A DNA stretch of 64,000 nucleotides from an uncultured Gammaproteobacteria bacterium (GTDB taxonomy: Bacteria; Patescibacteriota; Patescibacteriia; UBA1558; S5-K13). The position numbers and the translations under genes were made by a program. The notes below the pieces were generated by a model. The model was not told where the DNA came from and ran no database searches. It saw only the letters and a program-made list of their open reading frames with translations. Below are positions 5,758 through 62,643 of this stretch, in pieces (position 1 is the first letter of the stretch; the number at the start of each line of letters is the position of its first letter). The stretch is taken from contig CAZXFD010000003.1 of assembly GCA_964640635.1 (NCBI GenBank), positions 1,149 through 65,148 of the forward strand. The letters are read 5' to 3'.

Positions 5758-5898
5758 ATAAATGTCTATACATATATTTTACCACACACTCAAATACAAG
5801 AATAGTTGTTTAATTATACCCTTTTGATACAATAGGATTAGATAGTTATTAGGGTTGGTGAACTAGGCAAACATACTAATCGTGCCAACTTTAAACAT

Positions 5899-6055
5899 AA
5901 AAAACCCTCCCCCACCCTTAAATTAATATTGTGTCGTAAAACTAGATTTACCAAGTCCTAAACCGAGCTTCTAAAATCATAATAAATATAAAAACACCTT
6001 CGATTAACGAGGTGTTTTTTATAAAAATTAACTTAAGGGTGGGGGAGGGTTTTTA
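5899..6055. repeat. inverted-repeat element: C-rich arm / terminator hairpin / G-rich arm (copy 1)
   Basis: AAAAACCCTCCCCCACCCTTAA at 5899-5920 is the perfect reverse complement of TTAAGGGTGGGGGAGGGTTTTT at 6034-6055. The arms enclose a bidirectional terminator (acaccttcg..cgaggtgt + T6) at 5995-6020. Confidence 0.6.
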
Positions 6056-10174: not shown

Positions 10175-12985
10175 TTATATCAATTCCTTCAAATATTTTC
10201 CCGTATAAGATTTTGCATTCCTTGAAACTTCCTTTGGAGTACCAACAGCAACTACTTCACCACCTTTATCGCCACCCTCTGGTCCTAAGTCTATTATCCA
10301 ATCGGCACATTTTATGACATCCAAGTTATGCTCTATTATAAGCACACTATTTCCCTTATCAACTAATTTTTGTAAAACATCAACAAGTTTTTTAATATCT
10401 TCAAAATGTAGTCCTGTCGTTGGCTCATCTAGTATATAAAGAGTTTTACCACTAGCCTTTCTTGATAGCTCTGTTGCTAGCTTTACGCGCTGTGCCTCTC
10501 CTCCAGAGAGTGTTGTTGCTGATTGACCAAGTTTTACATAAGAAAGACCAACATCGTTTAATGTCTTCAGTTTATTATAAATTACTGGGATATCGGAAAA
10601 AAACTTCATTGATTCAAGAACTGTCATATCCAAAACATCAGAGATTGTTTTGTCTTTATAATGAACCTCTAGTATATCAGAATTATACCTCTTTCCATGA
10701 CAATCTTCACACTCTACATAAATATCTGGCAAAAAATTCATTTCTATTTTTACAAGTCCATTTCCCTGACAAGTTTCACATCTTCCACCTTTTACATTAA
10801 AACTGAATTTTCCCAGTCTATATCCACGCATTTTTGATTCTGGAAGACCAGCAAACAAATCTCTTATATAAGTAAACAACCCCGTGTATGTTGATGGATT
10901 TGACCTAGGCGTACGGCCAATTGGTGACTGGTCGATATTTATTACTTTATCAATATGTTCTAAACCCAAAATCTTTTTATGCTTTCCTGGCAAATCTTTT
11001 GCTCTTGTAAATTTATATGAGAGAGCCTTACCTAAAATTTCGAATATTAAAGTTGATTTTCCACTTCCTGATACACCTGTAATACAAACTAGTTTTCCAA
11101 GTGGAATTTTTACATCAATATTTTTTAGATTAAACTCACTAGCCCCGATTATTTCAATATTATGGCCATTTCCTAGTCTTTTGTTTTTAAGGGGCAAAAC
11201 ACTTAATTTATTTGATAAATATTTGCCAGTCAAAGATTTTGTATCTTTTTTTATTTCGGCTGCCGTTCCTGCAAAAATGATCTTCCCTCCATTTTCTCCT
11301 GCTCCTGGACCAACATCAATAATATAGTCTGCAGACAAAATAGTGTCTCTATCATGCTCTATTACAATTACCGTATTTTCAAAATCTCTTAATTTCTTGA
11401 GTGTTTTAATGAGTCTATCATTATCTCTTTGATGGAGCCCAATAGATGGTTCATCTAATATATATAAAACTCCAGATAGGGAAGAATTAATCTGCGTTGC
11501 AAGCCTTATTCTTTGAGATTCTCCACCAGACAAAGAAACAACTGTTCTATTCAAAGATAAATATCCAAGACCTATATCATTTATTGATTTCAATCTTACT
11601 ATAATTTCTTTAATAATTTTTTCAGCTATTATAAAAGATTTTTTGCTTAAGCTTGTTTTATTTTTATCTCCCAGGACAGAAAACAATTTGAAAGCACTTT
11701 CTATGTTGAAATTGGTTATTTCACTAATATCTTTTCCATCTATTTTTATAGCCAGAGATTCTTTCTTTAATCTTTTTCCATGACACAGTGTACACTCATC
11801 CGCTCTCATACATTTTTCTATTTCTGATTTTACATATTCAGAATCAGTATCTCTATATTTTTTTTCTAAATATTCTATTACACCACCCTTTTTAAGCCCA
11901 CTTTCATTGTCTAACTTTCCAAATAAAACCAGGCCTAAGTCCTCTTTGCTCAAGTTTTTTATAGGAACATTTATATCTATATCAAAATCATTTTTGATAC
12001 CCTCTATTATTTTGTAATAAATATTTTGGTTAACACAAATTTTGAATAGTAGTCTTATTCCACCTTCTGACAAGCTCAATTTATTGTTTGGAATAATAAG
12101 TTCTGGGTCTATTTTAAGTTTCATTCCTAGACCAGAACATTCGAAACATGCACCATGTGGAGAATTAAAAGAAAAATTTCTTGGCTCTATTTTTGAAAAT
12201 AAATAATTACATTCTTCACAATAAAGATGATTATTAAATGTTTTAACAATTGTATTTTTTTCTCCTGACGTTGCCATAAATCCATTTGAATAATCTATTG
12301 CCGTAGATATTGAAGCTATCAGTGAGTTAATATCATATTTATCTTTTTCTAAATTAAATTTACTGATAACAAGAAAAATTTCTTTATTCACATACTCTAC
12401 TTCATCCATTTTAATTACATCTTCTATAGAACAATATACATCTCCCACTCTGAGCATCTCGTAGTTACTTTTTTTTATTTTCTTAAATAAACTAGAGTCT
12501 ACTTTTTGACCGTTCTTTAATATCGGCGATAAAATATAAATTACATCGTCTTTAAATTCAGACTCTATATCCCTAGCTATTTGCTTTAAATCTTTTATGC
12601 TCAAAACTTTATCACACTCTGGACAATGAACGTCTCCCGATTTTGCAAAAAGGAGTCTTAGATAATCGTATATTTCTGTAGTTGTAGCAAGAGTTGATCT
12701 TGGACTTCTATTGCTCATTCCCTGACCTATTGAAATTGCTGGTGGAAGACCCTCAATACTATCAACATCCGGCTTATCTAATAAATCAAAAAACTGCTTT
12801 GAATAAGCAGACAATGATTCCATATATCTTCTTTGACTCTCTGCATACAATGTATCAAAGGCCAAAGATGACTTACCACTTCCAGACAAGCCACTTATAA
12901 CAGTGAATCTGTTTCTTGGTATATTAACACTTATATTTTTTAGATTATGAACTCTTGCACCCTTTATAACGATCTTTTTGTCCAT
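10175..12985 (-). CDS. uvrA: excinuclease ABC subunit A
   Basis: Two ABC modules (GLSGSGKSSLAFDTLYAE; GVSGSGKSTL), zinc-finger CxxC pairs, 936 aa. Confidence 0.95.
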   Translation of the reverse strand: MDKKIVIKGARVHNLKNISVNIPRNRFTVISGLSGSGKSSLAFDTLYAESQRRYMESLSAYSKQFFDLLDKPDVDSIEGLPPAISIGQGMSNRSPRSTLATTTEIYDYLRLLFAKSGDVHCPECDKVLSIKDLKQIARDIESEFKDDVIYILSPILKNGQKVDSSLFKKIKKSNYEMLRVGDVYCSIEDVIKMDEVEYVNKEIFLVISKFNLEKDKYDINSLIASISTAIDYSNGFMATSGEKNTIVKTFNNHLYCEECNYLFSKIEPRNFSFNSPHGACFECSGLGMKLKIDPELIIPNNKLSLSEGGIRLLFKICVNQNIYYKIIEGIKNDFDIDINVPIKNLSKEDLGLVLFGKLDNESGLKKGGVIEYLEKKYRDTDSEYVKSEIEKCMRADECTLCHGKRLKKESLAIKIDGKDISEITNFNIESAFKLFSVLGDKNKTSLSKKSFIIAEKIIKEIIVRLKSINDIGLGYLSLNRTVVSLSGGESQRIRLATQINSSLSGVLYILDEPSIGLHQRDNDRLIKTLKKLRDFENTVIVIEHDRDTILSADYIIDVGPGAGENGGKIIFAGTAAEIKKDTKSLTGKYLSNKLSVLPLKNKRLGNGHNIEIIGASEFNLKNIDVKIPLGKLVCITGVSGSGKSTLIFEILGKALSYKFTRAKDLPGKHKKILGLEHIDKVINIDQSPIGRTPRSNPSTYTGLFTYIRDLFAGLPESKMRGYRLGKFSFNVKGGRCETCQGNGLVKIEMNFLPDIYVECEDCHGKRYNSDILEVHYKDKTISDVLDMTVLESMKFFSDIPVIYNKLKTLNDVGLSYVKLGQSATTLSGGEAQRVKLATELSRKASGKTLYILDEPTTGLHFEDIKKLVDVLQKLVDKGNSVLIIEHNLDVIKCADWIIDLGPEGGDKGGEVVAVGTPKEVSRNAKSYTGKYLKELI

Positions 12986-19220: not shown

Positions 19221-19251
19221 AAATGCATTATATCTTTATTTAGATAAAAAT

Positions 19252-19375
19252 AAAAATCACCCCTTTATAATATGTATGTCATTCTGAGTTCATCTCAGAA
19301 TCTCATGGTTAATATAATTTACTGCGAGATCCTGAAACAAGTTCAGGATGACAGGTGTAAATATGGGTGATTTTT
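19252..19375. other. structured intergenic element: 11-bp outer inverted repeat enclosing two related 8-bp hairpins
   Basis: Outer IR is aaaaatcaccc / gggtgattttt. Inner hairpins are attctgag-ttcat-ctcagaat and atcctgaa-acaag-ttcaggat. Confidence 0.5.
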
Positions 19376-19390
19376 ATTTCTAACAAATAT

Positions 19391-39292: not shown

Positions 39293-39660
39293 AAAAACAT
39301 AAAATATTAATTAATATTGCTACAATTATAACATAAGCCTATCTTATTTGAAAAATATAAAATCCAAGAAATATCATATACTTGAATCTCCACTATACTA
39401 AATTGTCTGCCCTTCAATTCAGTCGCTCAGCTCCTTCACTCAGGACATTCGATGTCTATCATTTTAAAATGTAAATGCGGTCGAAGACCATCTTTCGACA
39501 ATGAGTCTCAAGACCGAATGGTGAACGAAGTTCTACAAAGCGGAACGAAATCGAATGGCGCTGGGGCAGAGCCCCACACAATTTCACTCCGTTCAATTTG
39601 CGGGGTAAAATTCGAACTTAAATTGATTCATTAACTAACAATTACACTAAATCCAAAAAA

Positions 39661-39700
39661 ACCTGTGGCGGAGTTTCCGGGATTCGAACATCCTCGTGCT
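39661..39700 (-). pseudogene. tRNA 3'-end-like relic (acceptor 3' strand + degenerate T-arm)
   Basis: TGGCGGAG....GGGATTCGAAC parallels the 3' end of the tRNA-Ser at 41142 (TGGCGGAG....GGGATTTGAAC), but it cannot fold into a cloverleaf and lacks a 5' half. Confidence 0.4.
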
Positions 39701-39804
39701 AGCTCTAAGACCCTATTAAATAAGTTTTTTTATTATATATATTTAATTTATGGCTCTATTCCATAAATAGCAAAAATAGTTTTGTTATTTCAAATAAGAA
39801 TTTG

Positions 39805-44830: not shown

Positions 44831-44860
44831 TGATTGTATTATAGCAGACTTTGGCCTATC

Positions 44861-44988
44861 AAAAAACCCTCCCCCACACTTAGAAAAATTTCATCTGATT
44901 AAATATTATTATATTAAAAAACACGGCCTTTTTAATAAACCGTGTTTTATTTTGATAAATCTTTTCTAAGGGTGGGGGATTATTTAAT
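44861..44988. repeat. inverted-repeat element: C-rich arm / terminator hairpin / G-rich arm (copy 2)
   Basis: AAAAAACCCTCCCCCACACTTAGAAAAA (44861-44888) pairs with TTTCTAAGGGTGGGGGATTATTT (44962-44988, reverse complement with 2-3 mismatches). They enclose the terminator acacgg..ccgtgt + T8 (44921-44953). Confidence 0.55.
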
Positions 44989-46093: not shown

Positions 46094-46203
46094 AAAAAAT
46101 CAGTGTTCGAGTTGTATCGAGAACCTGATTTTTTTATTTAACCTAATTTATCAGCTTCTCGACTCCACCCATTCGACAAGCTCAGGGTTTCGCTCGAAGA
46201 CTG
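46094..46203. repeat. about 100-bp repeated intergenic element, copy A (terminator hairpin + GC-rich module)
   Basis: aaaaaatcagtgttcgag(t)tatcgagaacctgattttttta...cagcttctcgactcca...gctcgaagactga matches copy B (62514-62604) at about 85-90% identity. Confidence 0.7.
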
Positions 46204-46211
46204 AATGACAA

Positions 46212-53996: not shown

Positions 53997-54026
53997 GGGG
54001 GCCAGGACCCGAGCGGGTCCTGGCCC
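53997..54026. other. isolated GC-rich perfect hairpin (12-13-bp stem)
   Basis: GGGGGCCAGGACCCGAGCGGGTCCTGGCCC is 100% complementary arm to arm, in a roughly 28% GC genome. Confidence 0.6.
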
Positions 54027-62513: not shown

Positions 62514-62604
62514 AATAAAAAAAATCAGTGTTCGAGTATATCGAGAACCTGATTTTTTTATTGACTTCAGCTTCTCGACTCCACTGCATTCCGCTCGAAG
62601 ACTG
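62514..62604. repeat. about 100-bp repeated intergenic element, copy B
   Basis: See copy A (46094-46203). Confidence 0.7.
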
Positions 62605-62643
62605 ATAATTCTACATTCTAAACACTAACAACTAAATACCAAC

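Follow-up and report, generated by a model that had tools for sequence, protein, structure and literature searches.

Two intergenic loci in a 64,000-nucleotide stretch of a Patescibacteria (Candidate Phyla Radiation, CPR) genome (contig CAZXFD010000003.1; the whole stretch is hereafter called the window) carry a nested palindromic element, in which a pair of long G/C-rich inverted arms encloses an ordinary intrinsic terminator. We tentatively favour, at a little short of an even chance, the reading that both loci are copies of a low-copy, lineage-restricted and dispersed palindromic "terminator cassette" of the MITE/SPRITE-like type (MITE: miniature inverted-repeat transposable element). The two copies have common 22-nt termini around differing interiors, are present or absent at orthologous loci of relatives, show a two-level terminator anatomy and lie at the 3′ ends of coding sequences (CDS). 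The element is real, non-random and lineage-specific. We take it as most likely a small new family within a broadly known kind, the palindromic terminator-like interspersed repeats, and its nested layout is unusual.

At site 1 the arms form a perfect 22-nt inverted repeat (5900-5921, AAAAACCCTCCCCCACCCTTAA, against 6033-6054), which an earlier note on this DNA had correctly recognised with coordinates one base off. The repeat extends to 31 nt at 94% (5900-5930 / 6024-6054), and 93-111 nt of AT-rich DNA separate the arms. The element at site 2 spans 44861-44979; its 44861-44882 arm matches the site 1 arms at 21 of 22 positions (blastn-short, E ~5e-4). Pairing between the site 2 arms consists of 8 perfect base pairs, one mismatch and 10 base pairs, with ~80-83 nt enclosed, or 94 nt between the 8-nt G/C cores. 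The arm at 44963-44979 is the shorter one because the TAA stop codon (44980-44982) of the upstream SIMPL-domain gene abuts it. The enclosed terminator is again made of an A-tract, a hairpin and a T-tract, and its hairpin differs from that of site 1; the claim that the architecture recurs at a second site with the arms alone shared, and with different terminators, is borne out. The component parts are as follows.

5900-5930: site 1 arm A, made of A5, the C-rich core CCCTCCCCCACCC, TTAA and an AT-rich extension.
5931-6023: site 1 interior, AT-rich, with a small hairpin besides that of the inner bidirectional intrinsic terminator.
5990-6020: site 1 inner terminator, A5, CACCTTCG / ATTAA / CGAGGTG, T6, a terminator on either strand.
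6024-6054: site 1 arm B, made of an AT-rich extension, TTAA, GGGTGGGGGAGGG and T5.
44861-44882: promoter-proximal arm of site 2, AAAAACCCTCCCCCACACTTAG; its gene-sense reading is CTAAGTGTGGGGGAGGGTTTTT plus one more T, directly upstream of TTGATA.
44883-44962: site 2 interior, AT-rich, with the inner terminator at ~44904-44940 (AAAAAACACGG...CCGTGTTTT).
44963-44979: site 2 stop-proximal arm, TTCTAAGGGTGGGGGA, truncated and without the outer CCC/A5 part.
44833-44866, minus strand: promoter of the downstream 741-aa gene, TTGATA ... TGCTATAAT, whose -10 ends 7 nt before the ATG.

The arm pattern can be written as A4-5-CCCTYCCCCACNC-TTA together with its complement, and the exact core CCCTCCCCCAC occurs in the window at the element arms only. 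On the gene-sense (minus) strand of site 1, arm A takes the role of arm B and is followed by T6. An A-tract, a G/C-rich stem and a T-tract are present at both nesting levels of both sites, and the outer helix of 18-33 bp is preceded by A5-6 and followed by T5-6. Inner hairpins and outer helices alike therefore combine, on both strands, a G/C-rich stem-loop with an immediate U-tract, as in an intrinsic terminator. A terminator consensus scan detected the inner hairpin of site 1 only and did not pick up the other element hairpins. Each element folds into a very stable RNA: -67.8 kcal/mol at site 1 (z -8.75) and -47.6 kcal/mol at site 2 (z -6.8), with 0/200 dinucleotide shuffles as good in either case. 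The outer duplex has -48.3 (site 1) or -28.8 kcal/mol (site 2), and the inner hairpins have -12.9 and -9.9 kcal/mol respectively. Of the intergenic regions scanned in the window, which were those of at least 60 nt between listed open reading frames (ORFs), none folds more stably than site 1.

The interiors were compared by local alignment, which gave p values of 0.09 and 0.01 and was limited to the terminator hairpin. We rejected homology of the two interiors, as they share nothing convincing beyond generic terminator features. The weak resemblance of the site 2 interior to the resident spacer and stem of simple terminators (p 0.006-0.01) is likewise unconvincing as homology.

The window has a GC content of 31%, where 28% had been proposed. 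The nearest named relatives by PolA are Patescibacteria, Komeilibacteria and Buchananbacteria metagenome-assembled genomes. Nearly all window genes are on the minus strand, and both copies do sit, as noted before, between co-oriented minus-strand genes: site 1 between a 185-aa ORF and a 117-aa ORF upstream of polA, and site 2 between the SIMPL-domain gene and the gene for a 741-aa protein with Ig-like and carbohydrate-binding module (CBM) domains. A stop codon directly adjoins site 2, and site 1 is located 21 nt past one. The promoter of the 741-aa gene lies outside the element because it is kept in all relatives examined, with or without the element. A second promoter-like sequence, TTAAAA-N16-TATAAT, is found inside the site 2 interior on the minus strand. 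As a side observation, the extended -10 of the outside promoter (TGCTATAAT, 44833-44845) stands 7 nt from the ATG of the 741-aa gene, which suggests a leaderless mRNA.

Orthologous loci provide both filled and empty sites. The closest relative (L052, GCA_964636855.1; 88% DNA identity, PolA 97%) carries a homologous element at site 1 with an interior ~83% identical. Its arms are degenerate (CTCTCCGCCTC / GGTGTGGAAGAG), with the same sequence recognisable through C to T/A/G changes and small deletions, and its fold is weak (-35.5 kcal/mol, z -2.3). The site 1 element is absent from L053/L054 and L055 (~80% identical), which have a simple bidirectional terminator instead. The flanks of that terminator are the same as those of the element, with TTTTATAGA...A-tract on the left and T-tract...ATTCTATTG on the right. 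In L052, L053 and L055 the terminator is followed by a 58-59-aa antisense gene that is deleted in the window, and site 1 of the relatives lies between convergent genes (the 185-aa ORF and a 59-aa antisense ORF); site 1 was therefore originally located between convergent genes. We also observed that ~225 bp including this antisense gene (L052 8614-8793; L053 9290-9466; L055 9300-9476; window gap at about 5880-5900) were lost from the window genome exactly at the T-run of the element, and that the 58-59-aa product is Gly-rich and hydrophobic-looking.

At site 2 the element is present in the L056-L059 lineage (79-84% identical overall), with an interior 100% identical over 81-90 nt. No exact run is longer than these 90 nt in the 12-kb alignment, whose overall identity is 79%. 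In L056 the outer helix is kept via a register shift despite 5 arm substitutions (-46.4 kcal/mol, z -7.1). The element is absent from L060, L085, L089 and a 73%-identity outgroup (L086), where a simple terminator follows the stop codon and precedes the same TTTTTTGATA...TGCTATAAT promoter. Presence is staggered, with site 2 common to the ~84%-identical lineage and site 1 only to the ~88%-identical one; in GCA_019248515.1 the site 2 element is present and the site 1 element is absent. A protein database search returned no site 2 orthologue from GCA_964636855.1. MAFFT alignments of element-bearing against simple loci do not settle which part is orthologous. The most economical history would have the branch that led to this genome gain the element twice, at separate times.

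Arms and interiors have evolved at different rates, in a direction opposite to the one first proposed. The earlier note had read the conserved arms and differing terminators as selection on the arms, but comparison of orthologues shows more change in the arms than in the interiors: 5/31 arm versus 0/82 interior positions are substituted at site 2 (Fisher p = 0.0012) and 16/47 versus 19/112 at site 1 (p = 0.022). The interior divergence of 17% at site 1, against 12% genome-wide, is about the neutral rate. Since orthologous arms diverge by 16-34%, the near-identity of arms between the two sites is not ancient. Near-identical arms within one genome combined with divergence between genomes point to a recent common source or concerted evolution, and the pattern does not signal long-term purifying selection on the arm sequence.

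In the proposed cassette, the ~22-nt termini (A5-CCCTCCCCCACCC-TTA, and a complement ending in T5-6) would be the sole part common to the copies, each of which would enclose an AT-rich interior of its own, whose intrinsic terminator is an ordinary bidirectional one. RNA polymerase arriving from either side would meet the inner hairpin and its U-tract first. Transcripts that read through would then complete the outer helix of 18-33 bp before the second U-tract, which could act as a serial second terminator in both directions. By analogy with Correia elements, read-through RNA with such a long perfect duplex would also be a likely substrate of RNase III. Judged from the sequence order, the arms cannot clamp the inner terminator, as had been suggested: depending on site and direction, the polymerase makes the G-rich arm 13-65 nt past the inner U-tract. 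Because the second arm is transcribed after the inner U-tract either way, the outer arm can act on read-through RNA only.

The closest described analogue appears to be the SPRITE element of Streptococcus pneumoniae, which has ~30 copies with AAAA/TTTT termini and an 18-bp duplex followed by a U-rich tract, is located near CDS 3′ ends, has no established target-site duplication (TSD) and was proposed to be co-opted as a terminator (PMC3049150). The element described here shares with SPRITE a length below 200 bp, AT-richness, a low copy number, A-run and T-run ends, a duplex of unusual length that leads into a U-rich tract, a position near the 3′ ends of CDS and the lack of an established TSD. 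The place of site 1 between convergent genes in relatives also fits this type of repeat, which is enriched there. The likeness is one of functional analogy only: the two belong to different phyla, between which no sequence homology is expected. Unlike in SPRITE, 22-nt G/C-rich termini alone are shared here, while the interiors differ and each holds a complete nested second terminator; two copies are seen, and empty sites are available that show the replacement of a resident terminator.

Other families of small repeats resemble the element in part. The Correia/NEMIS elements of Neisseria are ~100-155 bp long and intergenic, with ~26-bp terminal inverted repeats, and their transcribed hairpin affects the expression of neighbours and is cut by RNase III (PMC2649163; PMC10969869). 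The element falls in the same size class and has terminal inverted repeats and an intergenic location. Correia elements occur in hundreds of copies, with a conserved core, a TA duplication and an IHF site, and this high copy number, core, duplication and IHF site were not seen here. Several other candidates were dropped on what is known of their families: attC and dif sites on anatomy, retron or diversity-generating retroelement parts as Pfam annotations of the window hold no reverse transcriptase gene, and repetitive extragenic palindromes (REP/REPIN) as the arms are not themselves palindromic.

The family seems rare and confined to this lineage as far as public data go, since exact-arm scans gave only chance or unrelated plant matches. 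A number of observations weigh against a dispersed cassette. Two copies were found in ~74 kb (the window plus a 10-kb extension), and ~150 kb of relatives held no further copies apart from the orthologues. Exact-arm scans returned 2 chance matches in GTDB representative genomes, both in genomes of 50-74% GC; 45 matches in JGI metagenomes, all chance or a plant repeat of an Agave sample in another context; and 24 chance matches in IMG/VR, 0 of them with a paired G-arm. No transposase, recombinase, integrase or reverse transcriptase domain was identified among the proteins of the 64-kb window. No TSD is present at either site, where the flanks are an A-run and a T-run that are themselves part of the inverted repeat. 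One of the site 2 arms is truncated, the stem of the outgroup terminator at site 2 (CCCCATC / GGTGGGG) resembles the arm core, and the roles in termination and RNase III cleavage are predicted ones. Finally, the element sits exactly in the simple-terminator slot of the relatives, between the same A-tract and T-tract. The resident terminator has been replaced precisely rather than flanked, unlike in a simple cut-and-paste insertion, and the empty site is a different terminator and not a clean excision or insertion junction.

Further searches add to the picture of rarity. A fuzzy search for CCCTCCCCCACCC (up to 3 mismatches; related loci plus the 10-kb extension) gave only orthologues, a tRNA and chance matches in coding DNA, and scanning IMG/VR with the inner hairpin of site 2 gave 0 matches. 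With Rfam 15 at the gathering threshold only a tRNA passes in the window; at the elements, permissive settings yielded at best 38 bits, where the threshold is 90, with plant miRNA-precursor models of the generic long-hairpin type. The empty sites in relatives are as expected of a mobile or dispersed repeat, and the shared inverted termini are as in a MITE. A classical MITE is nevertheless not supported, given the missing TSD, the truncated arm, the two copies in ~74 kb and the absence of a transposase in the window. The earlier note had held that MITE and regulatory interpretations would lose support if only two copies existed, without TSDs, and relatives had simple terminators; two copies, and no TSDs, are indeed what was found, but some relatives carry the element and others a plain terminator.

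The alternative that deserves the most weight, although we consider it rather unlikely, is an origin in situ. Each arm would be one half of a palindromic terminator hairpin (AAAAACCCTCCCCCACCC-TTAA-GGGTGGGGGAGGGTTTTT), and different small AT-rich elements would have inserted at its central TA/TTAA, making the interior the insertion and the arms its target, much as insertion sequences (IS) hit the loops of REP palindromes. IS1397 and ISKpn1, which are full-length IS with a transposase, insert into the loops of REP palindromes, an abundant family. Insertion in the centre of an extragenic palindrome would in the same way make stem halves look like arms; unlike IS1397/ISKpn1, the inserts here are ~100 nt and non-coding, and uninterrupted palindromes were not found. 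On both flanks the arms hold the position of the stem halves of simple terminators in relatives, and removal of the interior leaves CCCT-TA-AGGG at both sites, restoring CCCTTAAGGG. Each interior has TA (TTAA at site 1) at its boundaries and imperfect terminal inverted repeats of its own. The arm-like outgroup stem mentioned above would favour descent of the arms from a resident stem, the substitution counts at site 2 (0/82 in the interior, 5/31 in the arms) fit a younger insertion in an older stem, and another hairpin differs between L053 and L055 by a 27-nt insertion exactly in its loop. However, the uninterrupted palindrome (AAAAACCCTCCCCCACCCTTAAGGGTGGGGGAGGGTTTTT) was seen in none of the lineages examined, arms and interior always occurring together. 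An in situ origin requires two independent insertions, one for each of only two known copies, and the site 2 boundaries TTAG...CTAA are an inverted repeat and not a direct 4-nt duplication. It also leaves unexplained why the stems of two unrelated resident terminators are 21/22 identical, unless the hairpin is itself a dispersed repeat, in which case this alternative collapses into the terminator cassette that we favour.

Four further readings, in which the unit is an inverton, a functional RNA, a pair of uptake motifs or a G-quadruplex, are less likely. In an inverton, the arms would be the sites of one trans-acting recombinase that flips a promoter-like interior, for instance to phase-vary the Ig-like surface protein. 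Inverted repeats of 22-31 bp around a segment of 90-113 bp, one repeat at two loci with different interiors, and within-genome similarity with between-genome divergence, as in co-evolution with a recombinase, would all fit, as does TTAAAA-N16-TATAAT at site 2, which faces the 741-aa Ig-like/CBM gene. Surface genes commonly adjoin invertons (PMC11892184), and the short intergenic promoter-like segment between inverted repeats is also as in described cases (PMC11892184, PMC11602134). We nonetheless judge this improbable. A single orientation was found in all assemblies retrieved (site 1 in the window, L001-L003 and L090; site 2 in the window and L004; relatives L056-L059 and L052), a weak test since these are consensus assemblies only; the 64-kb window revealed no recombinase gene; the downstream gene is already served by another promoter, which is conserved in all relatives; and flipping would change little because the enclosed terminators are symmetric. 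We give an equally low probability to a functional structured RNA or regulated terminator, with an interior under selection and an outer helix forming part of a cis-regulatory or small-RNA structure. The 90-nt exact run of the site 2 interior, the retention of outer pairing in L056 and the very stable folds are consistent with it, but the conservation of that interior is not unique, because 86-nt exact runs are also present in coding DNA of the same alignment. The site 1 interior evolves near neutrally and the outer helix of L052 has largely decayed (z -2.3). Moreover, a plain terminator suffices in relatives, synthesis of the G-arm comes too late for an effect on the inner terminator, and no Rfam family matches beyond the sub-threshold plant models. 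The arms might instead be a motif for DNA uptake or protein binding that builds up in inverted pairs around terminators, in the manner of the DNA uptake sequences (DUS) of Neisseria, whose inverted pairs form rho-independent terminator stems at separations of up to 21 nt, the motif occurring ~1/kb (PMC2397512). A specific short sequence does recur here as an inverted pair around a terminator, and the similarity of the site 2 interior to the spacer and stem of simple terminators (p 0.006-0.01) hints that arms may flank local sequence, a value not robust to multiple testing or to shared terminator features. This is very improbable: 90-113 nt lie between the arms, and the motif is rare, with four arms in ~74 kb against roughly one per kb for DUS, solo arms were not seen, and a 21-nt motif cannot arise by point-mutation build-up. 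Least credible of all is a role of the G-rich arm as a G-quadruplex, proposed on the G-richness of GGGTGGGGGAGGG in a 31% GC genome and nothing else. GGG-T-GGGGG-A-GGG provides three tracts of at least 3, where the motif needs four; a perfect C-rich complement lies ~100 nt away (90-113 nt, with a duplex of -29 to -48 kcal/mol); and several of the arm Gs are lost in L052.

A stronger version of the favoured terminator cassette would make the element a terminator-homing one, a small non-coding unit which replaces the resident intrinsic terminator precisely between A-tract and T-tract without a TSD; the clade would in that case have several families of this sort. We regard this extension as unlikely. 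If true, it would imply a targeting mechanism not described for MITEs, such as hairpin- or single-strand-directed insertion, or the exchange of taken-up DNA in naturally competent ultra-small genomes.

The window and its relatives hold other repeats of a comparable nature.

19240-19387: third nested palindrome, arms AAAAATCACCC / GGGGTGATTTTT (30 nt at 80%) around an 88-nt inner hairpin (GTCATCCTGAAC...).
~46095-46211 and ~62525-62643: second module family, directly after the Wzy_C and dnaN stop codons; also in L055 at 488-552, after RNase HII, a non-orthologous position.

The third palindrome, between the genes for glutamate dehydrogenase and RNase HII, folds at -53.1 kcal/mol (z -8.8). It has a matching architecture and another sequence, and is context rather than a member of the family. 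The second family is a dispersed terminator module, in which ~65-75 nt of shared sequence (TCAGTCTTCGAGCG...GTGGAGTCGAGAAGCTGA...AAAAAAATCAGGTTCTCGATA.ACTCGAACACTGATTTTT, ~85% identical, with a 15-nt indel) lie inside 120-nt modules that follow stop codons. This module is absent from the orthologous Wzy_C spacer of other relatives. The presence of a second dispersed module in the clade gives independent support for reading the element as a cassette.

Several side observations concern other parts of these genomes. G-poor repeats (TAGCTAYGWAGCTA / AACTAA) fill the 5′ leaders of several genes up to the start codon (upstream of the minus-strand ATGs at 12985, 45816, 50014, 20960 and 61597), and Shine-Dalgarno sequences are missing in many window genes, with a strong GGAGG in others. 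The hairpin with the loop insertion (L053 570-640, CCACTCTTTTC/GAAAAGAGTGG; L055 655-690, CACCCTTTTC/GAAAAGGGTG) shows compensatory changes along with its 27-nt difference. A perfect 12-bp G/C hairpin (GGGCCAGGACCC-GCTC-GGGTCCTGGCCC) at 53999-54026, just past the rpoC terminator, is an extreme compositional outlier. The 512 nt at 39293-39804 contain no ORF of at least 100 aa and form strongly folding G/C-rich stems; they have no Rfam, tRNA or tmRNA match and could be an unrecognised RNA gene. The longest exact match between the window genome and the 88% relative is a run of 126 nt (L001 10818-10943 versus L052), comprising the promoter and 5′ region of the 117-aa ORF upstream of polA (...TAATTAAACAACTATTCTTGTATTTGAGTGTGTGGTAAAATATATG...), a conservation beyond that of any coding stretch compared.

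The significance of the element is limited by its very low copy number, and it is no major surprise. It does bring a caution for annotators, who should not assume that every long G/C-rich inverted repeat in an AT-rich CPR genome is a transposon end, a riboswitch or a G-quadruplex motif. The nested design, symmetric in both directions, amounts to a natural "double terminator" and is a candidate insulator part. If the terminator cassette is what these loci represent, the terminators of streamlined Patescibacteria would not be static, and would be swapped between close relatives as small dispersed cassettes. Such swapping would be a cheap form of regulatory turnover in genomes that are almost without classical mobile elements.

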